Below, one piece after another: positions 5,582-61,139 of a DNA stretch of 64,000 bases. Origin of the DNA: Candidatus Kaiserbacteria bacterium (lineage in GTDB: Bacteria; Patescibacteriota; Minisyncoccia; Phycocordibacterales; Phycocordibacteraceae); the NCBI GenBank assembly GCA_023264445.1, contig JAHFMN010000003.1, positions 18,421-82,420 of the forward strand, in the 5' to 3' direction. The notes under the pieces are model-generated. The model ran no database searches. It saw only the letters and a list, made by a program, of their open reading frames with translations, and had not been told where the DNA came from. Within the stretch, counting starts at the first letter, position 1, and every line of letters begins with the position of its first letter. A program made the translations under genes and the position numbers.

Positions 5582-5585
5582 ATTC

Positions 5586-6794: not shown

Positions 6795-6795
6795 A

Positions 6796-7536: not shown

Positions 7537-7539
7537 AGG

Positions 7540-9285
7540 TTAATCGAACGATGACTCGGAATTCATGTCGTTCAGTTCTTTGCCGCCCATGAGCATAGGC
7601 AGGATGTCTTCCTGCGGATCTATCTCGCAGTGGATGAGCACCGGGCCTTTTCGTTTGAGCGCCTTCGTTATCTTTTCCTTTGCCCCGCGAACTGAAGGGA
7701 CGCTCACGGCATCGATGCCGTATGCGCGCGCGATGTCCGCGAAGTTCGGGTTGCGCTTACCGCCGGTTGCAGGATGCGACTTCCAGTTCTGTCGCTGGAA
7801 TTGCGCCACGATATTAAGAGCATGATTATCGAGGACAAGGATCTTGATATCGAGATTCCGCTCTGCGATAAATGCGAGCTCTTGTATGTTCATCTGGAAG
7901 CTCCCATCGCCCACTACGCAGAGCACCTTCGTGCGCGGGGCGGCCATCTTCGCGCCTATGGCGGCAGGAAGATCGAATCCCATCGTCCCATGACCGGAGG
8001 AAGTGAGGAGCTGACGTTCGGGATGCGAAAACGAAAAATGTCGTGGCACCCACATCTGGTGCTGGCCGACGCCGGTGGCAACGATGACATCCCCGGCGAG
8101 AGCATCGCTTGCCCATTCGATGACATGCTGCGGCTTGAGGTATGCGCCGCGCTGCTGCTCTGGCACGAGGGCGTGCGTCTTTTTCCATTCTTCAATGCTT
8201 GTGAGCCATGCCGTAGTTTTTCCTTTCGTTCGAGCCTTCTTGGAGAGAAGCGCATTGAGTGCCGTGAGTGCCTCGCCCACATCGGCATGTATTTTCAAAT
8301 CAAGCGGTACGCGGCTGTGGTCGAGCTCTTTTTCGTCCACATCTATGCGCGCAACCTTGCCTTGCGGCGTCATCCGCGCGGGCACACTGCCGGTCTGGCG
8401 GACGTGGAGCGTCGTCCCAAGCGCGATGACAAGATCAGCGTTGTAGAGAGCAAGATTCGCATACCGGCTTCCCACGTAGCCGCAGAGGCCGAGCGACAAC
8501 GGTTTATCGGAAGGGTACGCGCCCATGCCAGGGAGACTCATGGTCACTGGTATCGAGAAACGGTCTGCAAGAGAGCGCAATTGGCGCTCCGCGCGCGCCG
8601 CAATGACTCCGCCTCCGGCTAGAATGACCGGACGCTCGGCCTTCACTATCCAGTCCGCAAGCGTTGCCAGCTGTTTCTTCGGCAATGGCAGGCTTTTTGA
8701 TTTCTTTTTCGCAGGAGCTCGCACGATGCGAGGCGAAATGACGGCACGCTGGACGTTCATGGGAAGATCGACGACGACCGGACCTCCTCGCCCCTCTCGA
8801 GCAAGTGCAAACGCTTGCTCCATGACAGAGGGGAGTTCAGTTGGCTCTGTCACGAGCCATGCGGCCTTCGTGATCGGAGTGAGCACGTCAACCGTATCCA
8901 CTTCTTGAAAACCGCGCTGTTTGACGGGAATTTTCCCGCGCAAGTCGCTTGTCCCTACTTGTCCGGTAAGCACCACCATCGGCACATTATCGAAATACGC
9001 ATCTGCTATCGGCGTCACGGCGTTCGTCACGCCCGGACCTGAAGTGACCATGTAGACCGCCGGCTTCCCAGTCACCTTCGCATAGGCAAGAGCGGCAAAA
9101 CCCGCACCTTGTTCATTCTTCGGACAGATGATTTCTATATCCGTCTCCTTCTCTACTACGTCCAAAATAGGCCCAATGGTCCCGCCCGGATAGATAAATA
9201 CTTTCTCCACGCCATTGCGCTTGAATGCTTCTACGATCGCGTGCGCGCCGAACTGGTCGCGCTTTTGTGTGTGTTTCTTTTTCAT
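7540..9285 (-). CDS. Thiamine-pyrophosphate enzyme of the acetolactate synthase large-subunit family (YerE-like candidate)
   Basis: 581 aa with Pyr domain, central domain and TPP-binding domain (GDGSFQMNIQELA...NN TPP motif). ATGA overlap with the downstream Zn-ribbon methyltransferase. Confidence 0.8.
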   Translation of the reverse strand: MKKKHTQKRDQFGAHAIVEAFKRNGVEKVFIYPGGTIGPILDVVEKETDIEIICPKNEQGAGFAALAYAKVTGKPAVYMVTSGPGVTNAVTPIADAYFDNVPMVVLTGQVGTSDLRGKIPVKQRGFQEVDTVDVLTPITKAAWLVTEPTELPSVMEQAFALAREGRGGPVVVDLPMNVQRAVISPRIVRAPAKKKSKSLPLPKKQLATLADWIVKAERPVILAGGGVIAARAERQLRSLADRFSIPVTMSLPGMGAYPSDKPLSLGLCGYVGSRYANLALYNADLVIALGTTLHVRQTGSVPARMTPQGKVARIDVDEKELDHSRVPLDLKIHADVGEALTALNALLSKKARTKGKTTAWLTSIEEWKKTHALVPEQQRGAYLKPQHVIEWASDALAGDVIVATGVGQHQMWVPRHFSFSHPERQLLTSSGHGTMGFDLPAAIGAKMAAPRTKVLCVVGDGSFQMNIQELAFIAERNLDIKILVLDNHALNIVAQFQRQNWKSHPATGGKRNPNFADIARAYGIDAVSVPSVRGAKEKITKALKRKGPVLIHCEIDPQEDILPMLMGGKELNDMNSESSFD

Positions 9286-10253
9286 ATCGCTTCTCGTTTC
9301 CGCGCGACCCAGAAAATCCCGTTACCGGGCAACGCGAATGTCAGTATAAGGAAATTGAGGGGTTTGTATATCACGTAGCGCTTCAAGAGGGTCAATATCC
9401 GGTATAACCCGAGAAGGGCCTTTTTCGTTACCGTGTTCCCTTGCCTATCGATGAGCCGGTTCAGGCGGCTGCGGACGCCGAAACAGAGCGTCGGGGCAGC
9501 ATAGAGGGGGATGGTGCCGATAGAGAGGATGTCGAAACCAGAGCTCTCAAGCAGCCGCGTGAGCGCCGGCACGGTGAAATAATTGAGGTGCTCCGGCGGG
9601 ATGAGGTGATACCACTTCCTTCCGCGAAGCCGCGCGTATACGCCGCCGAAATTCGGCACGCTCCCGACATAGAGGCCGCCCGGGACGAGTCTATGCGCGA
9701 CTTCGCCCACATGCTCTCGCGGCTCCCGCACATGCTCAAGTGTCATGATTTCAGTTATGACGTCGAAATCATGAACGGCAACGTCCTCAATAGTTCCGGT
9801 CGTGATATCTACTCCTAAATGCTTCGCTCCGATGCGCTTGGCATCCGCATCCATATCCACGCCGTGCGCATCGAATCCGCACAGTTTTGCGGCATAGCAC
9901 ATGAATCCGTGGCCGCAACCGACGTCAAGAAGCCGCTTCTGGCCCGATGAACGGTACGGTTCTATAAGGGAAAGCAGAGTGAGGTTATCTTCTATGACGC
10001 TCTTGTTCGTATCGATGAAATCCTTCGCATCTCCGTGCTCATAGATATTTGATTTTGTCCTGCTCTCGCGATTCGCAGAGTAAAACTCAGCGAGTGCCGC
10101 GGCAGAAGGTAGAGGAGATACGGTCGCGAAGCCGCATGAGGCGCAGGTGATGAGGTCGTATTGCTGATTGTCGATTCCCGTAATCCCTTCGTAGGTCAGC
10201 CTGAAGTCGCCCCCAGAACACACAGGACAGACCATGGGATAGGTCCGGCTCAT
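9282..10253 (-). CDS. SAM-dependent methyltransferase with N-terminal Zn-ribbon (TylCIII-like sugar C-methyltransferase family)
   Basis: MSRTYPMVCPVCSGG...CASCGF then LLDVGCGHGF SAM motif. The long 5' ORF extension overlaps the upstream gene, so the start was set at 10253, 8 nt after the upstream stop. Confidence 0.7.
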   Translation of the reverse strand: MSRTYPMVCPVCSGGDFRLTYEGITGIDNQQYDLITCASCGFATVSPLPSAAALAEFYSANRESRTKSNIYEHGDAKDFIDTNKSVIEDNLTLLSLIEPYRSSGQKRLLDVGCGHGFMCYAAKLCGFDAHGVDMDADAKRIGAKHLGVDITTGTIEDVAVHDFDVITEIMTLEHVREPREHVGEVAHRLVPGGLYVGSVPNFGGVYARLRGRKWYHLIPPEHLNYFTVPALTRLLESSGFDILSIGTIPLYAAPTLCFGVRSRLNRLIDRQGNTVTKKALLGLYRILTLLKRYVIYKPLNFLILTFALPGNGIFWVARKREAI

Positions 10254-19372: not shown

Positions 19373-20350
19373 TTACTGTGTCGTGAGCGACAGCGCCATC
19401 TCCACGACCCGTTCGGTCGCACCCGTAGGCCATACCTCGCGCAGAGGACGATTCTCGAAGGGCCAGGTACCTTCCGCATATGCCGCGAGCACCCGTTTGA
19501 GTTCTTCCGGAGAATCAATGCGGGTCGTCACGCCTGCGCGGTTGCTCACTAGCTCGTCAGGTCCCTGAAGGGAAGGCCCGTAGCAGAGCACTTTTTTCCC
19601 TGCCGCTGTGGCCTGCATGAGAACGGGAGTCGCCGGACCGATGATGAGCCCGCTTTTCGAGAGCGCTTCTTCAAGCGTCGCTTCGCTTGCCATGTGCACA
19701 CGACTATCGAGATAACGATCGTATTTGTTTCTCTCATCGCGTGGATGGAGACGAATGAAAAGATTGTAGCCTTCGGGAAGCGCCGTACGTATTGCTTCAA
19801 GCATCTGATACTCGTCCGTTGTGGGAGTAGCAAAACCCGGTAGTAATGCATCCGAACGAATTGGCTGGGATATGAAAAGAATGCGTTTCTGGTCTTCGTC
19901 CGTGCGAGTGATGCCGTCGGCAAAGTGATCGAAATGCGGATTGCCGGTGATGACAAGCCGCTCAGCAGGAAATCCTTCAGCAATCATCTCTTCCTTCGCA
20001 ATATCGTCTATCACGCATACGATATCAGGCAGATACGCGAAATCCTTGGCACCGGGATTAGAGAATCTCTGCCAATAATTCGACCAGAAATCGAGTACGG
20101 CGATTACGGGTGCTGTGCCGTGCATCGCTTCGGTCACCTGCTTTTCAATGCTTGGTCCCCCGCTTGTGCCCACAACCACCACGTCGGGGTCATGCATATC
20201 ACCTTGCGGAATATCGCGTGCAGTACACATATCGCGTGCGGCCCCTTCCACTTGCGCAACGACTTCATCACCGCGTTCTATGAATGCCTTGGCAACCGGT
20301 ATGACTGAGTTCGCGCCGCCTGGATCCTGCGCTGATATGAGTACTTTCAT
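19373..20350 (-). CDS. GT-B fold protein; PseG-like UDP-sugar hydrolase or NeuC/MurG-like
   Basis: MKVLISAQDPGGANSVIPVAKAF... two Rossmann-like halves. Sits between two DegT genes in a Pse-like operon. ATGA overlap with the upstream gene. Confidence 0.5.
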   Translation of the reverse strand: MKVLISAQDPGGANSVIPVAKAFIERGDEVVAQVEGAARDMCTARDIPQGDMHDPDVVVVGTSGGPSIEKQVTEAMHGTAPVIAVLDFWSNYWQRFSNPGAKDFAYLPDIVCVIDDIAKEEMIAEGFPAERLVITGNPHFDHFADGITRTDEDQKRILFISQPIRSDALLPGFATPTTDEYQMLEAIRTALPEGYNLFIRLHPRDERNKYDRYLDSRVHMASEATLEEALSKSGLIIGPATPVLMQATAAGKKVLCYGPSLQGPDELVSNRAGVTTRIDSPEELKRVLAAYAEGTWPFENRPLREVWPTGATERVVEMALSLTTQ

Positions 20351-26987: not shown

Positions 26988-28061
26988 CTACGGCAGACCG
27001 AAAAACTCCTTCAGTGAACGCTCGCGTTCAGCAAGGTAGCGGCGGAGGTATGTCGCATCCAGAAATTTTTCCATACTCCATACCGCGCGTGACATTCCAC
27101 CAGAAAATCCTTCCTTGAAATCACTGATGCTACGCTCCTTATCGCTCATAATGCGCGTAAACGAAGACGGGGATGGGTAGAGCGGCATGAGGAATTCGCG
27201 GACGTCGCGGCGCTCAAGCTCCTCAAGCGCGCGCAGACGCAGCATATGCCCCACACGCTTTGGAGCGAATGCTGGATCGATGGCGACCGAATTATCGAAT
27301 GCCGCATGCTTGTAAACGGATACGAGCAACATGCCTGCAAGATTACCGGTTTCCCTATCTCGCGCGCGCACGAAGAATGCTTCCCCGGCTCGCGCGAGAT
27401 CGGCCTGACGCGCGTAACTCTCCCGAGAGCGTACCTGTTTGCCCGAATCGAGCACGTGCAAGCGGTAATACATCTCCTCCGCATCAGCATCAACTGTATG
27501 CCCTTCGAGAATATCGAAATTGAATAGTGGGGAAAATTTCCTGTCATAGCGGCGATATCGCTCGCGCGTACGCGCCACAGCGCCTTGGACCTCTACCGCA
27601 TGCAGGAGTGTTTGCGTCGCGATGTAGTGATGCACCCGTGTTGCGCGTTCCACCCGTTCTTGCTCATCCGCACGCGCGATTGGTGCAAAAAAATTTATTC
27701 CGATACAGCCCGCGCCTGCGGCGCGGGCGCGGCGTTCAAGTTCAGCAAACGCAAAATCCTCCATCTCCTCCGTGACAGTGAGTGGCCATGGCAACATGCC
27801 GTAATACGCTGCTTCAACCCATAATCCACCATATCGTTCGCGACGCTGGATGATAAGCGGACAGAGTCCAATGGGGATCTCATTCTCGTATATGAAAAAC
27901 GAATGATCCTTTGCTTCGAACGATTGTCCCGCCGCGAGCACGTATACATGCCAGTGCCAAGTGTGCCAAAACCACGAGTACGGTGAACGTTCGACAAGCG
28001 AATCCCAGAGTGCCTGAGCATCCGGTACTTCGCTAACCTCGCGTGCGGTAAATTGAGCCAT
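26988..28061 (-). CDS. FemAB-like/GNAT-fold acyltransferase (second paralog)
   Basis: 357 aa; architecture and size similar to 23635..24645. Converges on the FkbM gene with a 3-nt gap. Confidence 0.4.
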   Translation of the reverse strand: MAQFTAREVSEVPDAQALWDSLVERSPYSWFWHTWHWHVYVLAAGQSFEAKDHSFFIYENEIPIGLCPLIIQRRERYGGLWVEAAYYGMLPWPLTVTEEMEDFAFAELERRARAAGAGCIGINFFAPIARADEQERVERATRVHHYIATQTLLHAVEVQGAVARTRERYRRYDRKFSPLFNFDILEGHTVDADAEEMYYRLHVLDSGKQVRSRESYARQADLARAGEAFFVRARDRETGNLAGMLLVSVYKHAAFDNSVAIDPAFAPKRVGHMLRLRALEELERRDVREFLMPLYPSPSSFTRIMSDKERSISDFKEGFSGGMSRAVWSMEKFLDATYLRRYLAERERSLKEFFGLP

Positions 28062-34199: not shown

Positions 34200-34682
34200 A
34201 TGGACCCCATCCTGCAGTTATGCAAGAAGTTCCTGGAAATGCGCATCGTCCGCACGCTCACGGTGGGAGTCATTGCGGTTACCGTGCAGACTATAGTGTT
34301 CGAACTCCTTGCGGTGTACCTGCGGATTCTTCCTCCCAGCTCCGCCGTGATCATCGGCGCGGAAGTCGCTATTTTGACGAACTTCTACCTGAACAACCGT
34401 TTTTCTTTCGGCGACCGAAAACATGATCTCCCGCTCTTTTCACGCCTCGTGCGCTTTCATCTCGTCGTAAGCGGCTCTGTATTCTTGCAGTGGCTCTTCG
34501 TCTTCCTTGTCGAACGACAGACGTCCGATTGGCTTTTCATCCACGCTGCCTATGCAGCCGGCATTATTCTTGGCTTCTTCTGGAACTACACTTTCTACCT
34601 TCTTTTTGTCTGGCGGCATGTCCCGCCGCAAGCGGAAGATCAATCCTTGAGCCGATACAATTCAAACCGGCCGTCGCTATAG
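34200..34682 (+). CDS. GtrA-family flippase-like protein
   Basis: 160 aa, 4 TM. Positioned beside a GtrB-like GT2 and a GT-C transferase, the classic three-component Gtr layout. Confidence 0.7.
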   Translation: MDPILQLCKKFLEMRIVRTLTVGVIAVTVQTIVFELLAVYLRILPPSSAVIIGAEVAILTNFYLNNRFSFGDRKHDLPLFSRLVRFHLVVSGSVFLQWLFVFLVERQTSDWLFIHAAYAAGIILGFFWNYTFYLLFVWRHVPPQAEDQSLSRYNSNRPSL

Positions 34683-36421
34683 ACACGCACGGCGCCCAGT
34701 TTTTCCGGATGATACTGCGGGTCGAGAACGATATCCTTCAAGATGTAAGAGACGTGGTACTTCTGTAGATACGCTTGTATGTTCGGCTTGATATCGGTTT
34801 GGAATTGCCGTTCCAAGTCATTAAAGAATTTTTCGCCCATGAGTTCGGCCGATGTGGGCGGTATACCGCAGTCCTTATTTTTATCCCAGAAATACACTAT
34901 CCGGCAGATCTTGATGCCGCGTTCGATTGTCTTTGCATGATGATAGACGTCCTGCCGCCCGAGATAGGTGCCTATATCATCTTTTAGATCTTGCACGGTC
35001 GGATTATTGAAATAACTCGCGACTAAATACCGCTCCCGTATCTCTGCATTTGAAACCAAATGGAAAATGGTCGGTCCGGCGTAGAGGACGAAATGCCGGG
35101 TGAAGATGGGGAGCTCTTCCGTTGAGAAATCGTTTGGACTGCCCCAGACCACGACCGGCTGCGACTCGTGTGCATTGAGCCATGCGTAGGGTGCCGCATA
35201 GAGCTGTTGTGTCTTCCAAAATGCCGGGGCGATGTCAAAGAGAAAGCCCTTTAGATGCGTATACATAAAATTGCTTGCTCCAAACATGAGCACTGCAAAA
35301 CCGGCAATACAGAGAAGCCGCATGCCTTTCGTGATTTCGGCACGATGCCGCCATACCGGCAAAGCTGCGCCAATGCCTGCCCACACGAGCCAGGTGCCTA
35401 TGAATGGCCGCATGTGCACGGATGTTTCCAAAAGCTGGCCGGTTATGAGATTGCTTCCCTGCATGATCCAAAGTCCAAGGCCTCCAAGAACGATAAAAAA
35501 CCCGATAGATCGGAAATATACATCCCGCCGCAATGCCTCAATGCGCCAGTAGAGAATGCCGAGTAGCGCAAGAGCGGCGCCAATCCATCCACCCGAGTAG
35601 ATGACCTCGGCTTCAGGCAGATGTGTCGCTACAAGGCCAAATCGCGCGATACTTTCCCAGAAAGCGGGATTGGTATGCGAAATCCAGAGCGTATAGAGAA
35701 GAGTCGGCAGACCAATGCCGCCGCCGATGGACGAGGCAATCAAGGTGGCGCGCAGAAGAGGCCACTGCCGCCGTAGCAGAGCATAGAGCGCAAGGAGACC
35801 GAGCGTAATGACGACCGTCTGCCAGAGATAGCTAAAGACCCAGAACGTGGCGCCTGCCGCCAAGCCGAGGAAGAACGTGTTGGCCTTATTCGGATTTTTG
35901 AGGAACCGCGCAAGAACGATGTAGAAAAGGAGGAAGAAAGGATAGACCGTCTGGCGACTACTCATGCGGAAGATGAGCCCGCACGTTTGTATGAAGGCAA
36001 ATAATGCACCCGCCGCGCTGAGCCACTTCGGCGCGCGAAGCTCGCGGAGAAGCCAATAGAACAGTACGACGAAGATGATGCCCCACAGGATGTAATCGAG
36101 CGTTGCTGACGTCATAAGCGGTATGTGGAACAAAAGCGGCAGAGAAGAAAGCCACGTTCCGCCGAAAATCACCAGCGGCATATCGCCCGCATGCTCAAGG
36201 AGATACGGATTGCCGAAACCCCAATGACCCTCGGCTACGGCATGTGCTTGCGCATAGTAGAGGAACTCGTCGCCGTATGCCTGCGGTATGCCCCGCCAAT
36301 CCTCCCCGATGAACATCCACGCCTCCAGAGCCGGCGCAAGCGCGACGAGGAGCGCGAATACGAGCGCGACGAGGAGCGCGCGATGCTTCTGTACAAAATC
36401 TTTCACGTTCTCGAAGCGCAT
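34640..36421 (-). CDS. Large polytopic membrane protein, putative GT-C-type transferase or polymerase with C-terminal extracytoplasmic domain
   Basis: 593 aa, more than 10 TM segments, then a ~200 aa soluble C-terminal domain. No precise family assignable. Confidence 0.45.
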   Translation of the reverse strand: MRFENVKDFVQKHRALLVALVFALLVALAPALEAWMFIGEDWRGIPQAYGDEFLYYAQAHAVAEGHWGFGNPYLLEHAGDMPLVIFGGTWLSSLPLLFHIPLMTSATLDYILWGIIFVVLFYWLLRELRAPKWLSAAGALFAFIQTCGLIFRMSSRQTVYPFFLLFYIVLARFLKNPNKANTFFLGLAAGATFWVFSYLWQTVVITLGLLALYALLRRQWPLLRATLIASSIGGGIGLPTLLYTLWISHTNPAFWESIARFGLVATHLPEAEVIYSGGWIGAALALLGILYWRIEALRRDVYFRSIGFFIVLGGLGLWIMQGSNLITGQLLETSVHMRPFIGTWLVWAGIGAALPVWRHRAEITKGMRLLCIAGFAVLMFGASNFMYTHLKGFLFDIAPAFWKTQQLYAAPYAWLNAHESQPVVVWGSPNDFSTEELPIFTRHFVLYAGPTIFHLVSNAEIRERYLVASYFNNPTVQDLKDDIGTYLGRQDVYHHAKTIERGIKICRIVYFWDKNKDCGIPPTSAELMGEKFFNDLERQFQTDIKPNIQAYLQKYHVSYILKDIVLDPQYHPEKLGAVRVYSDGRFELYRLKD

Positions 36422-50546: not shown

Positions 50547-51992
50547 TTATTTCTTACTCATATTACGCAGGATGGCAGAATACGCGAAGCGGATCTGGTT
50601 GGCGAAGGAGTCACCCGCACCGAGTGATTTACGAGCGCGCATACGCTTCTCGAGTGAGAGAAGTTTCTCACCCTGCTCGGGAGTCGAGGTGTAGACCTGG
50701 TCAGTCTGCGAGAGAATAAGGCGTAGGAAGAGCCGCTCGTACCACGAGAGCGATTGGTCGGCGAGCGTCACCAGAAGCGGGATGAGCTTCCCTTTCCGCA
50801 CGATGAGCGCAGGGAGCGTGCCGTAGCTCGCCATAATAGACCATGAGAAGAGGTACCTATGTTTGTCGGCCAGATTGAGCGCTTTACTGGTTCCGAGAAA
50901 TGGCAGGAGGAACTTATCGAAGCGATTACCGAAGCCAACGCGATACACCGTGCCATTAGGGACGATACAGGGAATACCAAGTGCCTCTTTTGCATGAGCG
51001 GCGGTGATGATATCGAAGTGCACATCGGGCATCTTCTCCATGAGTTCGCAGAGTGCATCCTCGGCAGGACCCGAGATAGGGTGAAAGGTGGTGGTGAAGA
51101 CGAGAATACGCTTCTCGGGTGCGGGCTCAGGTTTAGCATCTTTCACGAACGCTGCGATATCGTCAGCAAGCGAGCGACGTGGTGCCCAGCCCAGCTGACG
51201 CGTCTTTTCGGTATCCACCATTGCCTGCATACGATTCCCTTGCCGTTCAGGAAGCATGACGACATCCCTTCCGAACAGTTTTGCGAGCCCAAGAATAGAG
51301 AAGGTGTCATTGCTTCCGATGCCATAGCCGTCACCGACTCCCTTCTCTCCAACCAAAACGAGACCGTCGACGATATCGTGCACGTGCGTAAAGATGCGCT
51401 CCTGTGTACCAGGAGCGACCACACCGAGCGAAAGCCCACGGCGGTACTGTTCTTTAAAAATAGCGACGACCGTCCCCATCGCACCAGTGCGTTCGTTCGG
51501 TCCATACACATTATAAAAATAGGTGATCGCGTAGTTAATGCCGAACCAATCGCCATAATTTCTCACGAGCTCGGTCATACTTGCCTTGCTCCATGCATAG
51601 GGGCTCTGATCGCGCCCGAGACCACCATCGCTGAACTTAGTGGAGGAGCCGGCGTACACGAGCTTCGCTCCGCGACGACGAGCGAATTCGAGCACCGCAA
51701 AGGTGCCATATTGATTTAAGTCCCACACCTGCTCTACGTCTTCAAAACTCTTCTCGACGCGTGAGTATTCGCCGAGGTGAAAGATGAGGTCGGGTGTCTC
51801 GGGAATGTGCTTTTCGATATCCTTGGTATGACCTTCGCGATAGTCTACGCCCGGGACATGATTCTCTCGGCTTCCAGCAAAGTAGTTGTCGAGCGAGATG
51901 ACTTTGTGACCCTCTTTTATCAGACGCGTGCAGAGATGCGTGCCGATGAAGCCCGCGCCACCGGTGACGAGGATTATTTTTTTATCCGCCAT
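50547..51992 (-). CDS. NAD-dependent epimerase/dehydratase (UDP-glucuronate decarboxylase-like) fused to a ~180 aa C-terminal domain resembling a GT4 N-terminal half
   Basis: ILVTGGAGFIGTHL...YAWSKAS (YxxxK) for ~300 aa, then ILVFTTTFHPISGPAEDAL... The unusual fusion gives 481 aa. Confidence 0.7.
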   Translation of the reverse strand: MADKKIILVTGGAGFIGTHLCTRLIKEGHKVISLDNYFAGSRENHVPGVDYREGHTKDIEKHIPETPDLIFHLGEYSRVEKSFEDVEQVWDLNQYGTFAVLEFARRRGAKLVYAGSSTKFSDGGLGRDQSPYAWSKASMTELVRNYGDWFGINYAITYFYNVYGPNERTGAMGTVVAIFKEQYRRGLSLGVVAPGTQERIFTHVHDIVDGLVLVGEKGVGDGYGIGSNDTFSILGLAKLFGRDVVMLPERQGNRMQAMVDTEKTRQLGWAPRRSLADDIAAFVKDAKPEPAPEKRILVFTTTFHPISGPAEDALCELMEKMPDVHFDIITAAHAKEALGIPCIVPNGTVYRVGFGNRFDKFLLPFLGTSKALNLADKHRYLFSWSIMASYGTLPALIVRKGKLIPLLVTLADQSLSWYERLFLRLILSQTDQVYTSTPEQGEKLLSLEKRMRARKSLGAGDSFANQIRFAYSAILRNMSKK

Positions 51993-52031: not shown

Positions 52032-53417
52032 TCACAGAAGTATGAATGCAGTCCCCGCAAGGGCAACAACGCCGAGGAAACTAAGGGCCCAGGGGGACTT
52101 GAAGATTCCCGTGGCGCGTGAGGTCGACGATGCTGGCAATGCCGCCCCCGCAGCGGCGAGCTCTGTCGCCGCTGCGGGGGCGCGTACTGCTGTAATTTCA
52201 TGCGCCGTGCCGCTTACGCCCTTACTCAAAGCAGGTTCGACTGTCTGCTTCTCATTAAAACTCATTCCGGGGGCAGAAGGTTGCACAGAGGCAGCCACCG
52301 AAATGGCTCCTTCGGGAAAGCGAGCTGCCACTTCTCCGCTTGGGAACAGGAGGGAGGCACTGCTCGCTATCGGCAGCTCAATAACCTGCGATGGGAAAAG
52401 GATAGTCCGGCCAGCAAGAATCTGTGTATCTGCGGGAATCGTGAACTCCTGCCCTCCCTCCGACAATCGCCAGAACGAGAGGTCCAGCGTTCGCGTACCG
52501 CTGTTGGCAAGAGTGATACCGCGAGGCGTGACCGAAGTAATCTTGATGTTCGCATCCTGCACCGTGATTATATTCTCGGCGAGCGCATCACCGCCATCAG
52601 CGGTAGTCGCGTGCACCACAACGACATATTCGCCCGAGCTGTAATACCGATGGAAGACACTTGCGCCCGTTCTGCGCATTCCATCGCCGAACGCATAGGT
52701 AATGATGGCGTCATCTCGTTTATTGCTTTTGCTGTCATATACGGCGGCAGAGAAAGCAACGTCCGCGCCGGAAGACAGTGTACGATTGCCGCCACTCACG
52801 ATACGAAGCGTCGGTATGGGCAGGTATTCCGGCACACCCAGGCTTGAGTGTACGATTGACGCACTTTCGGTCGTACTCGCCGCAACGGAAGAAGTTGTTG
52901 GAGTGCTTCCTGTGTTTGAGTTCGATTGAATCGAGACTCCCGCATTTACCGCGTGCGGTGTTGCAGCAGCTGTCTCCCAGCCGGAAGCCGTACGCTGTGC
53001 AGTCTCCTTGTTCGCATTATCCCCTCCGATGTCTACCCAATTTGCACCGCCTATCACTTGGTCAATAGTGTTCCCGCTTGTGTCCGTAAGCGTCAGTGTC
53101 GCACCGCTATTGGTAAGCGCCCCGGTATATATCTGGTCGGCAGTGACGCTCGGCACTGAAGCGTCTGATGTGCGTTCAAGCAAGAAAAAGCCGGAGGCGG
53201 CGATAGTTCCTGCAAGCGTTATGGAAGGGGAACCGTTGCTAGCGACAAGGTGCCAGCCGGTTATATCCACTGGCGCACTGCCGGTATTCTCGAGCTCCAT
53301 CCATTCTGCGTTCGCGCTGGCTGCTGTTCCCATCCATGCGATTTCGTTTATGGCGACCGCTGCATGCGCGAACACGGGGAAAAGAACGGCGAGCGCAAGG
53401 AAAGAGACAAAACGCAT
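52032..53417 (-). CDS. Secreted, C-terminally membrane-anchored protein with lamin-tail domains (LTD)
   Basis: Signal peptide MRFVSFLALAVLFPVFAHA; LTD signature AINEIAWMG...AEWMELENTG...ITGWHL; second LTD-like block SFWRLSEGGQEF; Ser/Thr-rich linker; C-terminal TM helix. Confidence 0.7.
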   Translation of the reverse strand: MRFVSFLALAVLFPVFAHAAVAINEIAWMGTAASANAEWMELENTGSAPVDITGWHLVASNGSPSITLAGTIAASGFFLLERTSDASVPSVTADQIYTGALTNSGATLTLTDTSGNTIDQVIGGANWVDIGGDNANKETAQRTASGWETAAATPHAVNAGVSIQSNSNTGSTPTTSSVAASTTESASIVHSSLGVPEYLPIPTLRIVSGGNRTLSSGADVAFSAAVYDSKSNKRDDAIITYAFGDGMRRTGASVFHRYYSSGEYVVVVHATTADGGDALAENIITVQDANIKITSVTPRGITLANSGTRTLDLSFWRLSEGGQEFTIPADTQILAGRTILFPSQVIELPIASSASLLFPSGEVAARFPEGAISVAASVQPSAPGMSFNEKQTVEPALSKGVSGTAHEITAVRAPAAATELAAAGAALPASSTSRATGIFKSPWALSFLGVVALAGTAFILL

Positions 53418-53423
53418 ACGGGG

Positions 53424-55190
53424 TCAGGATTCTCCTTTGAGCACGTTGCGGAGCGCATCTTCGGGAACTTCAAACGGTTTCTTTTCTTCCGCTGCTGGCT
53501 TTGGCATTTCCTGCTTTCTGCTTTCCACTTTCTGCTCTTTAGGTGGTGCCTCCTGCTTGTTTTTCTGAAGCACCTCGGCAAGTGCTCCCTTGAGCGACTG
53601 CTGCTGCTGTTCTTGCTTCTTTTCCTTTTCTGCACCAGTCTTCGCGGCCATAGTGCGCAAGATTGACTTCAGGTCTTCAGCGCTCTTTGATGGCGGCGCT
53701 GGACGATTGATTGGAGGGCGGGGTACAAAATCACGACGCTCCTCCCGCTCAGGCGAACGCGGTACAGAAGGGCGGTAGGGCGGAACTTCGGGAGCTCTCT
53801 GCGGAACACTTGGCATCTGGGCTGCAAACGGCTTTGGCGCGGGAGGCAAGGGCGCCGGTTTCCGCTTCATCCGCGCATCGCGTGGCGCTTCGGACGCGGC
53901 GCTTGCGGCAAGCTCGTCGATAATCGATTTCTCGATGCTTGCGCGCGGTGCGGTAAACTGCTTGCGCGAAGAGGCAATGACCTGCTCCCTATAAGAAACA
54001 GGTGGCGCCTCTATGGGCGGGATCGTCACCGCGGAAAATGGAGCTGACCCGACGCCGTCTATCATGAGCGTCAGGTATATCTGCCGGCGGTCGAGACCGA
54101 CCACGTCCTCCTTTGTGAATCGGGGCATGAAAATAGTTTCAAGCACCTCGGCATCGAACGGTCCGACGCGAAAGACGACTGTGGTGCCGACGTTGCCGAA
54201 CACGGCATCGCGCACCTCTTCTTCCATCTGCTCGATGTATTGGTGCGCGATGACAAGGTTCAGTTTATATTTGCGAGCTTCGGAAAGTATTTCTGCGAAC
54301 GTTTCGTTCGCGAAGTTCTGGAACTCGTCAACATAAAAATAGAGATGCGGAAGTCGCGTAAGCTCGGGTGCGGCAAGGTTTGCCCTACTCATCGCCGCGA
54401 GAAAGATGCGCGTTGTAAGCATCGAGCCCAAGAGGCGCATATTGGTCTCGCCGACGAGTCCTTTGGAGAGATTGATGATGAGGATCTTCTTTTCGTCCAT
54501 CATCGTACGGATGTCAAAGGAAGATTTCGGCTGACCGATGATGTTCCGGATGAGCGGATTGCCGGTGAACTGCCCGATTTTGTTCTGGATGGCAGGGGTC
54601 GCTTCTTGGGTATACCGGTCGCCGTAATTTGCGAATTCCTTTGTCCAGAAATCCTTTACGACCGGGTCCTTCACGTTATCCACGACCTTTGTTCGGTACT
54701 CCTTATCGGTATACATGCGATTCACACCAAGTAGAGTTGCATCCGGATACTCGAGGAGGGCAAGGAGCGTATTCGTAAGGATGTATTCCATGCGGGCGCT
54801 CCACGCGTCTTCCCATATCTTCTTGAAGGTCGCCATGAGGCCGCTTACCACGAGGTGGCGTTTGTCATAGCCGACGTCCTCCATCACATTGAAGGCAATA
54901 GGGTGCTCGAGATCGAAGGGAGCGAAGTAGACGACATCTTTTATTCGGTTTTCGGGAATGTATTCGAGGAGTCGCTCAACGGTGCCGCCATGCGGGTCGA
55001 TAAAGGCGAGCCCTTCGCCATTCCTGATATCCTGAATCGCCATATTCTCGAGCAAGGTGGACTTGCCCATACCGGTCTTGCCGATGACATACATGTGGCG
55101 ATCGCGGTCTTTTGACTTGATGCCGAAAGGGACATACTTTCCCCGCGCGTCAGTCGCCGCGAAGTAAGTCACGCGCTCGGGATTCTCCAT
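53424..55190 (-). CDS. P-loop NTPase of the TraD/TraG/VirD4 coupling-protein (AAA_10/DUF87) type with disordered Pro/Lys/Glu-rich C-terminal tail
   Basis: Walker A VIGKTGMGKST, Walker B LYFYVDEFQNF; C-terminal ~170 aa low complexity (PAPLPPAPKP...EKEKKQEQQQQ). Confidence 0.6.
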   Translation of the reverse strand: MENPERVTYFAATDARGKYVPFGIKSKDRDRHMYVIGKTGMGKSTLLENMAIQDIRNGEGLAFIDPHGGTVERLLEYIPENRIKDVVYFAPFDLEHPIAFNVMEDVGYDKRHLVVSGLMATFKKIWEDAWSARMEYILTNTLLALLEYPDATLLGVNRMYTDKEYRTKVVDNVKDPVVKDFWTKEFANYGDRYTQEATPAIQNKIGQFTGNPLIRNIIGQPKSSFDIRTMMDEKKILIINLSKGLVGETNMRLLGSMLTTRIFLAAMSRANLAAPELTRLPHLYFYVDEFQNFANETFAEILSEARKYKLNLVIAHQYIEQMEEEVRDAVFGNVGTTVVFRVGPFDAEVLETIFMPRFTKEDVVGLDRRQIYLTLMIDGVGSAPFSAVTIPPIEAPPVSYREQVIASSRKQFTAPRASIEKSIIDELAASAASEAPRDARMKRKPAPLPPAPKPFAAQMPSVPQRAPEVPPYRPSVPRSPEREERRDFVPRPPINRPAPPSKSAEDLKSILRTMAAKTGAEKEKKQEQQQQSLKGALAEVLQKNKQEAPPKEQKVESRKQEMPKPAAEEKKPFEVPEDALRNVLKGES

Positions 55191-55238
55191 TAGTATTCAG
55201 TATAACAAATCCCGCTTGACGCAGGATTTACATACACA

Positions 55239-55460
55239 TCAGATGGGAGAAATTTCGGAGGGAGGAGTTGGTTCGGATGTGGGAGCTTCCTTGGGCGGCT
55301 GTGCGCTTTTGGCCTCCCGTGCACGAAGCATGAGACCGATGCCGAGAATGGAGGCACCGCATGCAACGGTAAGGAGCGAGCGGAGCGCCATCGGGAGGCC
55401 TGAAAACGGCGTAATGAGCGTCAGAATACCAAGGACGATGAGTGCGCTGGTGCGGGACAT
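55239..55460 (-). CDS. Small membrane protein (2 TM) with Pro-rich tail, hypothetical
   Basis: 73 aa ORF filling the gap between rsmI and the ATPase; hydrophobic helices LIVLGILTLITPF and ILGIGLML. Confidence 0.35.
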   Translation of the reverse strand: MSRTSALIVLGILTLITPFSGLPMALRSLLTVACGASILGIGLMLRAREAKSAQPPKEAPTSEPTPPSEISPI

Positions 55461-55472
55461 GGAAAAAGTATA

Positions 55473-56138
55473 TCAGGGTGTCACGATGACGACAAACTCA
55501 CCCCGTATCGTGTCTGGATGCGAAGCGAAATGGGCAGACACGTCTTGCGGCGTGCCCGAAACAACCTCTTCATGAATCTTCGTAAGCTCGCGGGCGACGG
55601 TAATGCGCGATACGCCTTCCAATTCTTTCAGCAGCTTCTCTATACGGTGCGGTGACTCATAGAGCACCACCGGTATTTCGCTCACAACAATCTTCTTTAA
55701 CGCTGTCTGACGACCCTTCTTGTGGGGCAGGAATCCAAGAAAGGTAAAAGCGGTAGCATCCAGTCCGGCGATAGAAAGCGCAGTCGCGAGCGCAGAAGGA
55801 CCCGGTATCGCTTCAATCTTTGCGTCAGGCAATTCCTTGCGTACATGTGCAACAAGACGCGCACCAGGGTCAGAGATGCCTGGGGTGCCCGCGTCGCTTA
55901 CGAACGCGACACGCTCGCCATTCTCAAGGCGAGCGATGACCTCATCAGCCTTCTTGATTTCCTTCGCCGCATCAAGCCGCTGGAGCGGCTTTGCAATGGA
56001 GTAGCGCGCAAGAAGCTTCGAGATGACGCGTGTGTCTTCGGCATATATCACATCGCATTCTTTCAGCGTCCGCAAAGCACGGAGCGTAATATCCTCCAAA
56101 TTTCCTATCGGCGTCGCGACGATCGAGAGCGTTCCCAT
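55473..56138 (-). CDS. rsmI: 16S rRNA (cytidine1402-2'-O)-methyltransferase
   Basis: MGTLSIVATPIGNLEDITLRA...DAGTPGISDPG, canonical RsmI/tetrapyrrole-methylase fold. Confidence 0.9.
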   Translation of the reverse strand: MGTLSIVATPIGNLEDITLRALRTLKECDVIYAEDTRVISKLLARYSIAKPLQRLDAAKEIKKADEVIARLENGERVAFVSDAGTPGISDPGARLVAHVRKELPDAKIEAIPGPSALATALSIAGLDATAFTFLGFLPHKKGRQTALKKIVVSEIPVVLYESPHRIEKLLKELEGVSRITVARELTKIHEEVVSGTPQDVSAHFASHPDTIRGEFVVIVTP

Positions 56139-56139: not shown

Positions 56140-57408
56140 TTATGTTGTCACTAACTCATCAGCGACTTTATAGATGTCGCCGGCACCCATCGTTATCACT
56201 GTGTCGCCCTCCCTCGCTTCGCTTAGAGCTTTTAGAATTGCATCAAATGAGAGAGCTTGTGTACTCGTACCGGTCGCGCGAATGCGCTCGGCAAGTATCT
56301 CGCTCGAGATAGAACCATCGTCTGCCTCGCGGGCGGCATAGATGGGGGCAATGTAGACTTGATCAGCATCGCTGAAAGCAGCTGCGAATTCATCAAGCAG
56401 ATCTCGTGTGCGGCTGTAGAGGTGGGGATGGAAGGCAACGATGATGTTTCCTTTTGCTTGTGCGCGAAGCGCCTTGAGCGTTTCTCGCACGGCCGTCGGG
56501 TGGTGTGCATAGTCGTCGTACACGTCTGCCCCATTTTTATTTTTTCCTTTGTATTCAAATCGGCGCCACGTGCCGTGGAAATCAGCGAGAGACTCGGCGA
56601 TGGTCGCATCTGAAATCATTGGGAGCACGGCACGGGCGGCGGAGGCAGCCGCTCGTGCATTATTCTGATTAAACTCTCCCGGCAAACGGAGGTCGTATGC
56701 GGTCTCCTTGGTGTAATCGACCACGCGCGCTTTTGCGCCCGCCAAAAGGGAAGTGATGTTTCTATTATTTTGGTCCGTTACGATTGCTCCGTCTGCGGGC
56801 ACCCGCTCAATCGCTTTCTTAAATGTTTCCTGAAGGGAAGTGAGAGAGGGGAAATAGTCGGTATGGTCCCATTCGAGATTCGTGATAACTAAAACCTTCG
56901 GCGATAATTCGAGCAAATGGTCCTTGTATTCGCACGCTTCTACCACAAGCATGTTTGCATCTCCATGAAGATAGTTCGATTGGAAGTCCTTCACGATCGA
57001 GCCGATAATTGCGGTCTCGTTTGCCCCAGCATCGTGGAGAATCTTGGCGAGCATTCCTGTCGTCGTGGTCTTGCCGTGAGTCCCAGCGACTGCAATCGTA
57101 TACCTATCTGCCGATACCTTTCCGAGCATTGCAAAATACGACATTTGTGGTGTCCCCAGTTCGGCTGCGCGAACGCGTTCAGAGTTATCCACAGGTACCG
57201 CATCGCTGTAGACGACCATCTCTGCGTCGGCTGGAACATTTTCTGCCTTCTGCCCGATAGACACCTGTATTCCCTTCTTTTCAAGCAGATCGGTAGTAGG
57301 GCTTGCTTCCCTATCCGATCCGGTTACGGATGACCCGTGATCAATAAAATATTGCGCGAGCGCGCTCATCCCTATCCCCCCGATGCCGATGAAGTAGATT
57401 TTCTTCAT
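56140..57408 (-). CDS. murC: UDP-N-acetylmuramate--L-alanine ligase
   Basis: IYFIGIGGIGMSALA...AVAGTHGKTTTT...; 422 aa. Confidence 0.9.
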   Translation of the reverse strand: MKKIYFIGIGGIGMSALAQYFIDHGSSVTGSDREASPTTDLLEKKGIQVSIGQKAENVPADAEMVVYSDAVPVDNSERVRAAELGTPQMSYFAMLGKVSADRYTIAVAGTHGKTTTTGMLAKILHDAGANETAIIGSIVKDFQSNYLHGDANMLVVEACEYKDHLLELSPKVLVITNLEWDHTDYFPSLTSLQETFKKAIERVPADGAIVTDQNNRNITSLLAGAKARVVDYTKETAYDLRLPGEFNQNNARAAASAARAVLPMISDATIAESLADFHGTWRRFEYKGKNKNGADVYDDYAHHPTAVRETLKALRAQAKGNIIVAFHPHLYSRTRDLLDEFAAAFSDADQVYIAPIYAAREADDGSISSEILAERIRATGTSTQALSFDAILKALSEAREGDTVITMGAGDIYKVADELVTT

Positions 57409-57986
57409 GGATAATTGGGCAGCGTATCGGGTCGATAGTCGAAATGGAAATACTCACGTTTCGTACCGATACGGAAACCGTTAAGCATCATTAATTTACC
57501 GAGATAGTCTTGTAATTCCTGGCATTGCTGTGACCCTTCGTCTTTTTTATTTTTATAAAAGTCGATGAAGAGCGCTGGTACACCATCTTCGCTACGCCGC
57601 ATATGAATTTCTTTATTTTCTTTGGTATCCCAGATCGCTACGTCTACCGAAAGACCAAGAGCGTGGGGCATTGTATTCATATTTAGGATGGAGTCTGTTA
57701 CTTCTTTACCGTATTTCTCCACGCGCCGCTGGTATACGATTTTGTAGATTTCCTCCGATCGATACCCTTCTTTTATGTATAAACGCCATCCTTTTTCTTG
57801 GAGTTTTTGGTCTATCGCCGCCAGTTTATCAATAATTTGCTTGCTCACCCGAACTCGATCATCTTTAAGGCCAGCTTGCATAATATCCTCCTTAGTAAGG
57901 CCGTGTGTAGCGTATTTATGCCAATAAAAATTGCTACCGAGGAGGCCATAGTCGTCTATATATACGAGGTCGGTAGGCGTGGTCAT
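57405..57986 (-). CDS. M15-family zinc metallopeptidase (VanX/D-Ala-D-Ala dipeptidase or LD-carboxypeptidase-like)
   Basis: HALGLSVD (HxxGxAxD) motif and 193 aa size. GC content clearly lower (about 43-45%) than the flanking ~60%. Confidence 0.6.
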   Translation of the reverse strand: MTTPTDLVYIDDYGLLGSNFYWHKYATHGLTKEDIMQAGLKDDRVRVSKQIIDKLAAIDQKLQEKGWRLYIKEGYRSEEIYKIVYQRRVEKYGKEVTDSILNMNTMPHALGLSVDVAIWDTKENKEIHMRRSEDGVPALFIDFYKNKKDEGSQQCQELQDYLGKLMMLNGFRIGTKREYFHFDYRPDTLPNYP

Positions 57987-59293: not shown

Positions 59294-59298
59294 GTGGG

Positions 59299-59371
59299 TG
59301 CACGCTCTAGGAGTCGAACCTAGGACCGCCCGAGTATCAGTCGGGTGCTCTACCAACTGAGCTAAGCGTGC
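59299..59371 (-). tRNA. tRNA-Ile (anticodon GAT)
   Basis: Manual fold: acceptor GCACGCT/AGCGTGC, D-arm GCTC-AGTTGGTA-GAGC, anticodon arm CCCGA-CTGATAC-TCGGG (GAT), T-arm CTAGG-TTCGACT-CCTAG, discriminator A. CCA not encoded. Confidence 0.9.
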
Positions 59372-59408
59372 ATCTGTGGATATTATCAAAAAACCTCTTT
59401 AGTTTCCA

Positions 59409-59447
59409 CTCAAACAAAAACACCCTTCTCGGGCGTTTTTGTTTGAG
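59409..59447. repeat. 39-nt near-perfect palindrome with flanking A- and T-runs in the 16S-tRNA spacer
   Basis: ctcaaacaaaaac-a-ccc-ttctc-ggg-c-gtttttgtttgag; terminator-like in both orientations. Confidence 0.7.
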
Positions 59448-59452
59448 TTTAA

Positions 59453-59488
59453 GAAAAGATGTGATGCGCTCTTTTGTTCCGCCTATTC
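59453..59488 (-). promoter_or_regulatory. 3' half of the 16S rRNA processing stem (pairs with 61105..61139)
   Basis: gaaaagatgtg...cttttgttccgcctattc is the exact reverse complement of 61105-61122 plus 61129-61139, bracketing the 16S gene. Confidence 0.7.
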
Positions 59489-59639
59489 TGTCTCGCTTGA
59501 GAGCTCATATGTGGCTCTCAAACGACCACCGGATTACGTTCCCCGGCACTCGAGCATCGGTTAGAGACGAATGCTATCTCTCGTGATTCTTTCGAATCAC
59601 ATCGACATGATTTTCCTTTCGGGAAAATCGGTTCCAATT

Positions 59640-61102
<1,463 letters not shown>

Positions 61103-61104
61103 AA

Positions 61105-61139
61105 GAATAGGCGGAACAAAAGAATTCACACATCTTTTC
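61105..61139 (-). promoter_or_regulatory. 5' half of the 16S rRNA processing stem (leader)
   Basis: Complementary to 59453..59488. An adjacent perfect hairpin gcccggcac-tcgc-gtgccgggc lies at 61141..61162. Confidence 0.7.

Follow-up and report, generated by a model that had tools for sequence, protein, structure and literature searches.

An orphan coupling-protein-like ATPase and the adjacent lamin-tail-domain surface protein of a Candidatus Kaiserbacteria genome: a possible DNA-uptake pair

A 64,000-nt stretch of Candidatus Kaiserbacteria DNA (contig JAHFMN010000003.1 of assembly GCA_023264445.1, positions 18,421 to 82,420; hereafter the window, that is, the whole stretch analysed) carries three neighboring genes on its minus strand. 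These encode a 73-amino acid (aa) small membrane protein (55239–55460), a 588-aa orphan P-loop ATPase of the TrwB/VirD4/VirB4 clade, which resembles the type IV coupling proteins (T4CPs) and consists of a motor and a disordered tail (53424–55190), and a 461-aa surface protein with a lamin-tail domain (LTD; 52032–53417). All three open reading frames (ORFs) had been recognized in an initial annotation and are real. Their order, which had been read as LTD protein first and ATPase after, is reversed by the minus strand, and the ATPase precedes the LTD protein. In the direction of transcription, the genes are an RsmI-like methylase (55473–56138), the 73-aa ORF, the ATPase, the LTD protein, a fused epimerase (50547–51992), and then many glycosyltransferases; the gaps between the first five are 12, 48, 6, and 39 nt. 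MurD, a 193-aa ORF, and MurC are located upstream of RsmI. Almost every gene of the window lies on the same minus strand, and the closest relatives of the window proteins are named Candidatus Kaiserbacteria, Paceibacterota, or Minisyncoccia.

The gene scan covered about 45 of the approximately 60 ORFs of the window, all of them glycan or cell-wall enzymes. Among these, no gene of a type IV secretion system (T4SS), relaxase, VirB component, pilus, or competence protein was found, in agreement with the earlier remark that relaxase and VirB genes are not visible, and no reverse transcriptase was found either. Similarly, T4SS or relaxase genes are absent within 5–6 kb on either side in approximately 170 related loci. 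Simple scans for promoter-like and terminator-like sequences gave counts not above the shuffled expectation. One extended −10 site, a consensus match only, is placed at 55495–55467, just 5′ of the small ORF.

In the motor domain of the ATPase, which occupies aa 1–430 (53901–55190), an all-alpha domain is inserted into a RecA-like nucleotide-binding domain. Within the Walker A motif GKTGMGKS (aa 37–44; 55059–55082), residues G37, G40, G42, and K43 are invariant in an alignment of 60 sequences, and the same applies to D288 and E289 of the Walker B motif YFYVDE (aa 284–289; 54324–54341). Three Pfam models of T4CPs match above their cut-offs, namely TrwB_AAD_bind with 43.6 bits (cut-off 20.5) spanning aa 26–343, TraG-D_C with 30.6 bits (cut-off 22), and T4SS-DNA_transf with 28.3 bits (cut-off 20.1), which bears out the coupling-protein type first assigned to this gene. 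The DUF87/HerA model scores 20.9, under its cut-off of 23.2, and there is no Pfam match to FtsK_SpoIIIE or to the gamma domain. The NCBIfam scores are far under the equivalog cut-offs (conju_CD1115 55 vs. 250, SXT_TraD 41 vs. 366, and TOL TraD 28.8 vs. 648), and by sequence the PDB returned only a weak match of the Walker A region to TrwB.

In the confident AlphaFold2 (AF2) model of residues 1–430 (pLDDT 90.7, pTM 0.89), about 125 residues form a helical insertion into a RecA-like core, in the manner of the all-alpha domain of T4CPs. According to DSSP, this AAD-like domain comprises the helices between strands 86–89 and 236–240, that is, approximately aa 108–232 (54495–54869). In a Foldseek search with the modeled motor, TrwB ranks first (E = 8e-14, TM-score 0.61–0.65), followed by HerA, Cagbeta, DotL, and DndH-C. 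Because of these Pfam and fold matches, the ATPase is placed in the VirB4/VirD4/HerA branch and not in the FtsK branch. It shows neither the features of FtsK/SpoIIIE (motor signature, gamma winged-helix, and N-terminal membrane domain) nor those of HerA (DUF87 above threshold, HAS barrel, and a NurA or defence partner), and a clustering with HerA or FtsK, which would have spoken against the first assignment, is not found.

Hydropathy reveals no hydrophobic stretch that could form a transmembrane (TM) segment anywhere in the 588 aa. The ORF is not extendable upstream, as it begins at the first start codon after a stop, and its N-terminus is conserved in homologues. The tail, previously described as a Pro/Lys/Glu-rich extension of about 170 aa, is found to comprise 163 aa (aa 426–588; P27, A22, E20, K19, and R14) with a net charge of +9. 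Its linker is highly variable in length and sequence across homologues, with three short helical motifs kept. The helical motifs SAEDLKxILRTM and SLKGALAxVL (approximately aa 502–543; 53562–53687) appear as conserved columns in an alignment of 68 sequences, and a helix is predicted with low confidence at aa 504–543 in the full-length AF2 model. The extreme C-terminal peptide KPFEVPEDALRNVLKGES (aa 572–588; 53427–53477) is kept in nearly all 75 locus homologues, with the consensus KPFEVPEDxLRKVLKGE at the end of the hypervariable linker, and related ends of the form E(V/L)PEExLKxIL occur in relatives of 44–52% identity. Judging by this pattern, the peptide is a putative tethered docking motif. 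The full-length AF2 model is poor (pLDDT 55) because the alignment is shallow; it conveys helix propensity only and nothing on the docking of the tail to the motor.

The surface protein gene starts 6 nt after the stop codon of the ATPase. The N-terminal signal segment is located at aa 1–27 by hydropathy (AHA/A site), and the LTD head at aa 17–121 (53055–53369) is strongly supported (Pfam LTD 70.2 bits, cut-off 34.3, E = 2.3e-19; matched block aa 21–122). A Ser/Thr-rich linker connects the head with a PKD (Ig-like) domain at aa 208–278 (52584–52796; PKD_4 30.9 bits, cut-off 27; PKD 27.9 bits). It is followed by a second, weak LTD-like domain at approximately aa 285–375 (52293–52565; a second Pfam LTD stretch at about aa 291–348, with a match of a purpose-built hidden Markov model (HMM) at aa 301–340, i-E 3.6e-4), another linker, and a C-terminal TM anchor at aa 441–461 (52035–52097; by hydropathy), which is preceded by the conserved motif IFKSPWxLxFLGV. 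Hence, from the layout originally proposed, the signal peptide, the C-terminal TM segment, and the first LTD block hold, whereas the second block is weak and the PKD domain between the two had been missed. In a relative (locus L173), the second domain is likewise annotated as "LTD (weak)". The linkers contain 20–27% Ser and Thr. The C-terminus is conserved among orthologues, ending in SPWTLGLLGV..AGGAFILL, with no cytoplasmic tail after the anchor. Pfam gives no helix-hairpin-helix (HhH) match in the window protein.

The orthologue set, that is, the 63 proteins encoded directly 3′ of the ATPase, differs in part from the window protein in this last respect. The Pfam matches are PKD in 53 of them, LTD in 46, HHH_3 in 27 (PF12836, best 2e-23), T2SSK, which is an HhH-containing model, in 23, and FlgD_ig in 4. 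Reading of the sequences locates the variable part at the N-terminal head, and the scaffold of PKD, LTD-like domain, and anchor is constant. After the signal peptide, the head is an LTD (AVVINEIAWMG...EWIEL), a ComEA-type HhH (ALININTADATLLDTLPGIGPSKA...), or an Ig-like (FlgD_ig-like) module. The same three variants appear in the wider search of the family, which is small (383 matches) and in which some members carry the JGI label "competence protein ComEA". HhH-headed relatives share 57–67% identity with the window protein over the C-terminal 58–65%, and some full-length LTD-headed relatives share only 44–48%. Because the common C-terminus of the HhH variants exceeds some LTD variants in identity, a recent exchange of heads on one scaffold is implied. 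The family evolves fast, with a median core identity of 37%.

For the gene order, 80 loci of GTDB species representatives (ATPase 58–83% identical) and 80 metagenome loci (51–81%) were compared. The block MurC-RsmI-small ORF-(DUF4015)-ATPase-(surface protein)-epimerase/glycosyltransferase 4 (GT4) is syntenic across the loci of Paceibacteria. The initial annotation had tentatively set the genes apart from the glycan locus; this does not hold, since the ATPase is embedded in the envelope and glycan region across Paceibacteria, with epimerase or GT4 genes next to it. Next after the ATPase, a surface-protein gene is present in about 60 of the 75 GTDB loci and in about 35 of the 80 metagenome loci. 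The gap between the two has a median of 4 nt and does not exceed 20 nt in 56 of 59 cases, with the genes overlapping in 21 of 59. When contexts were picked through the surface protein instead, the ATPase was directly upstream in all three, one of which has different genes on both sides. The pairing is asymmetric: every surface-protein copy inspected adjoins the ATPase, but the latter can do without this neighbor.

The motor is more conserved than MurC and RsmI of the same block. In the 48 loci that also contain MurC and RsmI, the median identity to the window proteins is 83% for the motor, 63% for MurC, and 60% for RsmI, with the motor ahead of both in all 48; among the closest database relatives it reaches 89–95%. 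These values point to extreme purifying selection on the motor, stronger than that on MurC. The family is large, with 21,915 representatives of 50%-identity clusters at E ≤ 1e-3 and 5,804 at 1e-30. In a survey of 2025, VirD4-type T4CP homologues were found in 2,918 of 3,035 Patescibacteria genomes (about 96%), amounting to 5,713 genes, of which 148 are near virB4, and relaxases were almost absent; the genomes contain 2,474 virB4 genes, from which the T4CP genes are often far away, and exaptation of the T4CP homologues was raised as a possibility by the authors (PMC12102498). Because of this survey, the orphan ATPase as such is already known, though unexplained.

Two architectures are found in the family, the short form present here and a long form, in which the motor is preceded by an N-terminal TM segment and by DUF8128 (PF26449), a domain of about 350 aa. 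Of the top 150 representatives, 39 have the long form, which is found in Berkelbacteria and other members of the candidate phyla radiation (CPR). A search with tblastn and with an HMM made from the 39 long forms, covering the window and 80 loci, gave no separate gene for the DUF8128 domain near short forms; the domain has no mention in the searchable literature. HMMs of the surface protein (HhH, LTD, and core) gave no match in the contexts of long-form ATPases, and because of this the pairing is considered limited to the short forms of Paceibacteria. In four loci of Berkelbacteria and other CPR (L086, L087, L169, and L171; positions ~1400–9500 in each), the long forms compose a module that adjoins SecDF and consists of a DUF8128-ATPase A (~830–850 aa), a conserved protein of ~170 aa without Pfam match, and a DUF8128-ATPase B (~980–1180 aa). 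In L169 and L171, an extra Sigma70_r4/HARE-HTH DNA-binding protein raises it to four genes. In L088 and L170, a single long form adjoins FtsQ-MurB-MurC. Two further relatives (P0231 and P0252; 33–38% identity, non-CPR-looking) have two complete motors in tandem within one protein of 1,210–1,227 aa, behind an N-terminal domain of ~400 aa without TM segment, in a layout that recalls the multi-ATPase EccC.

Motor-only relatives of 41–55% identity are found on contigs that resemble mobile genetic elements (MGEs), beside an M23 peptidase, a PLD nuclease, and a PD-(D/E)XK nuclease. Because of this location, the sequences suggest that the chromosomal form was domesticated from T4CPs of mobile elements. 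The motor also matches the C-terminal half (positions 398–807 of 824) of phrog_5156, a phage family without assigned function, with E = 2e-55, a match far stronger than that to any T4CP model. The best phage relatives do not exceed 28% identity; those of Bacillus phage G (gp156, JN638751 91999–93174) and of the SPO1-like CP-51, Shanette, and JL, at 23–28%, are annotated as hypothetical. The best plasmid relatives are from Sulfitobacter (40%; L084, NZ_CP081110) and Bradyrhizobium (32%; L085, NZ_CP064708), both orphans on plasmids typed non-mobilizable, as are 446 of the 623 plasmid records with an ATPase match. One of the two lies beside recombinase/transposase genes, and the other, of 708 aa, is flanked by CHAT-domain and TPR proteins in an apparent conflict island. 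These plasmid relatives say nothing about function.

The third gene, the 73-aa ORF, has two hydrophobic segments (aa 4–26 and 25–47 by hydropathy), as first described. It is predicted to form a two-TM hairpin with a C-terminal tail rich in Pro, Glu, Ser, and Thr, which the positive-inside rule places in the cytoplasm. No match was found in Pfam, NCBIfam, PADLOC, or PHROG. The ORF is regarded as a real gene because it is conserved in 57 related loci, with a median identity of 44%. Across these loci it lies mostly 12–30 nt after RsmI (typically about 16 nt). A DUF4015 glycosyl-hydrolase-like gene stands between it and the ATPase in about 25 loci, and in a few loci there is an insertion on its opposite side. 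The small ORF is therefore a conserved neighbor, not a proven partner, and has no specific tie to the ATPase; any role of its product beside the motor would be conjectural. Consequently, only a part of the translocation module originally suggested for the trio stands: the pair of ATPase and LTD protein is recurrent and tight, whereas the small ORF does not qualify as its third member. The idea of a split T4CP, with the 73-aa ORF as the detached N-terminal TM domain, was weakened by the same observations, namely that the ORF tracks RsmI and that the DUF4015 gene intervenes. No fused form of the small ORF and the ATPase was seen in the loci inspected. The DUF4015 gene ("putative glycosyl hydrolase", E ~1e-84 to 1e-88) is directly 5′ of the ATPase in deeper Paceibacteria (L030, L062, L074, L097, and L112) and is absent from the lineage of the window; in L053 and L040, an ORF of 356–376 aa without Pfam match occupies its slot.

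The function tentatively proposed for the pair, as a possibility rather than a probability, is that of a T4SS-independent DNA translocase working with a DNA-capture receptor in uptake. The ATPase would be a chromosomal, T4SS-independent descendant of T4CPs. By analogy with TrwB, HerA, and DptH, it would be a soluble, probably hexameric, ATP-driven translocase of nucleic acid, and it most likely reaches a membrane or cytosolic partner by means of the conserved peptide on its long flexible tail. The ATPase and the surface protein appear from their arrangement to be co-transcribed and probably translationally coupled. The surface protein would be Sec-exported and C-terminally anchored, with its exchangeable head capturing an extracellular ligand, most plausibly DNA. 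In this way, the pair would supply a surface DNA receptor (the role of ComEA) and a cytoplasmic motor pulling inward (the role of ComFA), and transport across the membrane would proceed via ComEC or another channel encoded elsewhere.

In the CPR, the core com set is described as comprising ComEC, DprA, and ComFC together with type IV pili, and neither ComEA nor ComFA is named in it (PMC10633639). Because of this gap, a DNA-uptake pair is the best single explanation. It is also favored by the absence of a T4SS nearby, the tight pairing, the exchange of heads, and the precedent of LTD and HhH domains in secreted DNases. The link to DNA, already considered in the initial annotation, is plausible because the LTD head gives way to a bona fide ComEA-type HhH in many orthologues.

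Several observations weigh against uptake. The LTD heads are very acidic, with a median net charge of −10, and that of the window has −9 with a single K/R, whereas the HhH heads range from −1 to −6. Such a composition is unfavorable to direct, simple electrostatic binding of DNA by the LTD head and weakens the link. The surface protein cannot touch the ATPase directly, because it has no cytoplasmic tail. Its gene is missing in about 11 of the 75 close loci and about 45 of the 80 broader ones. In these, epimerase or GT4 genes come next after the ATPase, which keeps its tail motif; because of this retention, the ATPase must have a function independent of the surface protein. Furthermore, adjacency could be inherited gene order, because the whole block is syntenic across Paceibacteria, and no comEC, dprA, comFC, or pilin gene was found near any of the approximately 170 loci inspected. 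A competence accessory protein would also be expected to evolve faster than this motor. Finally, comEC is dispensable for growth in S. epibionticum (PMC10633639), and a t4cp homologue, possibly an orthologue of the ATPase of the window, has been reported as non-essential (PMC12102498).

In a broader and more speculative form, which is held to be doubtful, the orphan VirD4/VirB4-like ATPases of Patescibacteria in general would be a cytoplasmic DNA-import motor that replaces ComFA, with the LTD/HhH receptor of Paceibacteria replacing ComEA. This would constitute a previously unrecognized module of competence or DNA scavenging in organisms reported to be without de novo nucleotide synthesis pathways. 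As a variant, the same motor would be the substitute of the CPR for a septal DNA translocase.

The strongest rival explanation, rather unlikely in itself, is related to this variant. In this case, the ATPase would be a division-associated chromosome translocase, similar in function to SftA or FtsK. As a soluble hexameric DNA pump recruited to the septum via its C-terminal peptide, it would clear or segregate DNA in the course of division, with the surface protein as an unrelated neighbor. The layout of a motor, a Pro-rich disordered linker, and a short peptide is likened to that of FtsK linkers and FtsZ-type C-terminal peptides, and by this analogy it agrees with division, but the motor itself shows no FtsK_SpoIIIE or gamma-domain match in Pfam and the fold ranking also disfavors an FtsK relationship. 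The housekeeping-grade conservation of the motor, higher than that of MurC and RsmI in every locus compared, and its persistence where the surface protein is absent are as expected for a division protein. The neighborhood points in the same direction: division and cell wall (dcw) genes recur beside the family in varying arrangements, with MurD-x-MurC-RsmI upstream here and FtsQ-MurB-MurC-MurG convergent with distant long forms, and long-form relatives are flanked by the Sigma70_r4/HARE-HTH DNA-binding protein. The tight, recurrent pairing with a ComEA-like gene is, however, left unexplained. The near-universality of the homologues in the survey cited above (PMC12102498) is also in favor of division, but by simple arithmetic its 5,713 genes in 2,918 genomes correspond to about two per genome. 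Moreover, a gene annotated as ftsK exists in the Saccharibacteria strain TM7x; apart from this annotation, the literature on FtsK in Paceibacteria/Parcubacteria offers nothing decisive.

It is unlikely, to nearly the same degree as a division role, that the two genes form no module at all and that their adjacency reflects the frozen order of a compact genome. The surface protein would then be an adhesin or envelope protein with a variable head, perhaps glycosylated by the products of the ~50-kb glycan locus, and the ATPase would serve another envelope or secretion role, for example protein export similar to EccC of the type VII secretion system. The long-range synteny of the whole region and the DUF4015 and GT4 genes that flank the ATPase in deeper relatives are consistent with a frozen order. 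The Ser/Thr-rich linkers, the acidic heads, the three unrelated head types, and the fast evolution of the surface protein fit an adhesin. Nevertheless, the family is small (383 matches), its genes come right behind the ATPase in all contexts inspected, one of which has different flanks, the stop and start codons are often overlapping or nearly so, and a ComEA-type head beside a motor with a DNA-translocase fold is unlikely to be meaningless.

Less likely still is that the ATPase is a genuine T4CP serving a chromosomal T4SS of Patescibacteria located elsewhere, often near dnaA, to which it would bring protein or DNA substrates, with the surface protein as a possible accessory. By homology this is the default, since the best family matches are models of T4CPs (TrwB_AAD_bind, TraG-D_C, T4SS-DNA_transf, and the VirD4-like CD1115) and the all-alpha domain typical of T4CPs is present; yet the N-terminal TM domain normally used for docking is missing and the NCBIfam scores stay far under their cut-offs. 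Distance from virB4 is common for T4CP genes in these genomes, and motor-only relatives occur on MGE-like contigs. On the other hand, the small fraction of homologues near virB4 and the near absence of relaxases in the survey do not suit such a role, a t4cp homologue proved dispensable where the T4SS was essential (PMC12102498, PMC10633639), and accessory parts of a T4SS would be expected to evolve faster than this motor.

That the LTD protein is the target of a diversity-generating retroelement (DGR), as had been considered at first, or the ATPase a part of anti-phage defence (HerA-, MADS-, or Dpt-like) is very improbable: the weak similarity to mad8 (51.9 bits) and HerA models of PADLOC and the variation of the head between lineages are countered by the absence of any direct or inverted repeat of at least 30 nt touching the LTD gene (52032–53417) in the window and of a reverse transcriptase among the window genes scanned, by variation through replacement of whole domains instead of adenine-directed point changes, by the lack of adjacent partner genes (Sir2, NurA, DptF/G, and methylase), and by a near-universal, syntenic, and slow-evolving behavior opposite to that of defence islands.

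The surroundings of the genes show further features. From position 1 to about 52 kb, the window is a single, very large glycan locus, nearly uninterrupted and on one strand, and these ~50 kb represent a large share of a genome that is probably below 1 Mb. It encodes NeuB and a cytidylyltransferase (nonulosonic-acid type), two DegT aminotransferases, a Polysacc_synt_2 dehydratase, a pyruvyl transferase, FkbM and other methyltransferases, PMT_2, GT2, GT4, and GT9 transferases, an ABC exporter, and ATP-grasp and TPP enzymes. Three of its ORFs, all on the minus strand (26988–28061, 34640–36421, and 19549–19983; 357, 593, and 144 aa, respectively), have no Pfam match at E ≤ 1e-5. The fused epimerase/dehydratase that follows the surface protein (50547–51992, minus strand) has its enzyme at aa 1–263 and a C-terminal extension of ~200 aa without Pfam match, ending in ...GDSFANQIRFAYSAILRNMSKK. 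The fusion recurs in many related loci (477–503 aa), and in other loci the enzyme of 280 aa is found alone.

On the other side, the region 59295–61105 (minus strand) contains a full-length bacterial 16S rRNA gene (1,468 nt, no insertion), then tRNA-Ile(GAT), and then directly murD. The rRNA genes appear to be unlinked, because no 23S gene is found downstream of the 16S gene and the tRNA. The longest ORF of murD starts with TTG at 59389 and overlaps the tRNA, which means that murD actually begins further downstream. No Pfam hit is precomputed in the identical ENA contig for the 193-aa ORF between murD and murC (57405–57986, minus strand), and in a related locus (L003) its slot is taken by a glutamate racemase (Asp_Glu_race).

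In the searchable literature, no account was found of an architecture combining a TM-less motor, a linker, and a terminal peptide, of the extreme conservation of the ATPase, or of its tight pairing with a head-swapping LTD/HhH receptor. What is new here is the pairing with the surface protein, the exchange of heads among orthologues, and the observation that the small ORF is not specific to the ATPase. The T4CP homologues of Patescibacteria are near-universal and almost never beside a T4SS (PMC12102498), and the present locus makes the question of their role directly testable, as it offers a defined architecture, strong purifying selection, and a recurrent partner gene with a ComEA-type domain in sister lineages. 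If the pair acts in DNA uptake, the gaps of ComEA and ComFA in the competence pathway of the CPR would be filled, which bears on the acquisition of DNA by nucleotide-auxotrophic episymbionts and on their genetic tractability. If the ATPase is a division translocase instead, this would be a new example of a motor of the conjugation type taken over for housekeeping.

Compared with the T4CPs TrwB, VirD4, TraD, and DotL, the ATPase shares the Walker motifs of the P-loop, the all-alpha insertion, and Pfam models above cut-off. The T4CPs normally dock to their channel through an N-terminal TM domain of their own, which the ATPase of the window does not have. It also differs in the absence of a T4SS or relaxase nearby, in its identity of ~15% to TrwB, and in NCBIfam scores far under equivalog level. 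It is chromosomal, near-universal in the phylum, and very slow-evolving, with a long, basic, Pro-rich tail and a conserved amphipathic end. Because it lacks the TM domain, the linkage to a T4SS or relaxase, and the equivalog scores, it is designated a T4CP-derived orphan and not a coupling protein. With respect to the C-terminal ATPase domain of VirB4 (Thermoanaerobacter, PDB 4ag5), it lacks the N-terminal domain and the neighbors VirB3, VirB6, and VirB8, and the VirB4 models are unmatched (CagE_TrbE_VirB; NCBIfam VirB4_plasma 15.8 bits vs. 590). In contrast to HerA and the C-terminal domain of DptH/DndH, it has no Dpt/Dnd or NurA partners and no HAS-barrel, and behaves as a housekeeping gene, not as one of a defence island.

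Soluble motors without a TM domain are known from other systems. SftA of B. subtilis is a soluble FtsK-like DNA translocase that acts at the septum, and ComFA of the same species is a soluble ATPase pulling DNA through ComEC; the two belong to other ATPase families (FtsK and DEAD-box, respectively). TraJ of pIP501 is a T4CP that likewise has no TM domain, and its recruitment is ascribed to the small membrane protein TraI. TraI is a candidate analogy for the 2-TM ORF, which however is not consistently adjacent to the ATPase.

As for the surface protein, its orthologues share with ComEA the HHH_3 domain (27 of 63), the export signal, and the membrane anchor, whereas the window protein bears an LTD in the place of the HhH and its gene is not beside comEC. 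In Gram-positive ComEA, the anchor is N-terminal and the HhH C-terminal; in the present family, the order is the opposite, with the HhH at the N-terminus, PKD and LTD-like domains as spacers, and the anchor at the C-terminus. The window protein is thus a true LTD protein; it is orthologous to ComEA-like proteins, but its domain content is not that of a ComEA. ExeM and the DNases of halophiles have in common with it the N-terminal LTD right after the signal peptide and the hydrophobic C-terminal anchor, and its LTD region is weakly similar to the N-terminus of ExeM. The window protein has, however, no nuclease or phosphoesterase domain and is purely a scaffold of domains. In ExeM, deletion of the LTD lowers the nuclease activity in vitro (PMC6085458), and in secreted DNases the LTD and a duplicate HhH take the same position and have been proposed as functional analogues in DNA binding (PMC4486849). 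The replacement of LTD by HhH on one orthologous scaffold, as found in the present family, is one of the cleaner comparative arguments on the ligands of bacterial LTDs.

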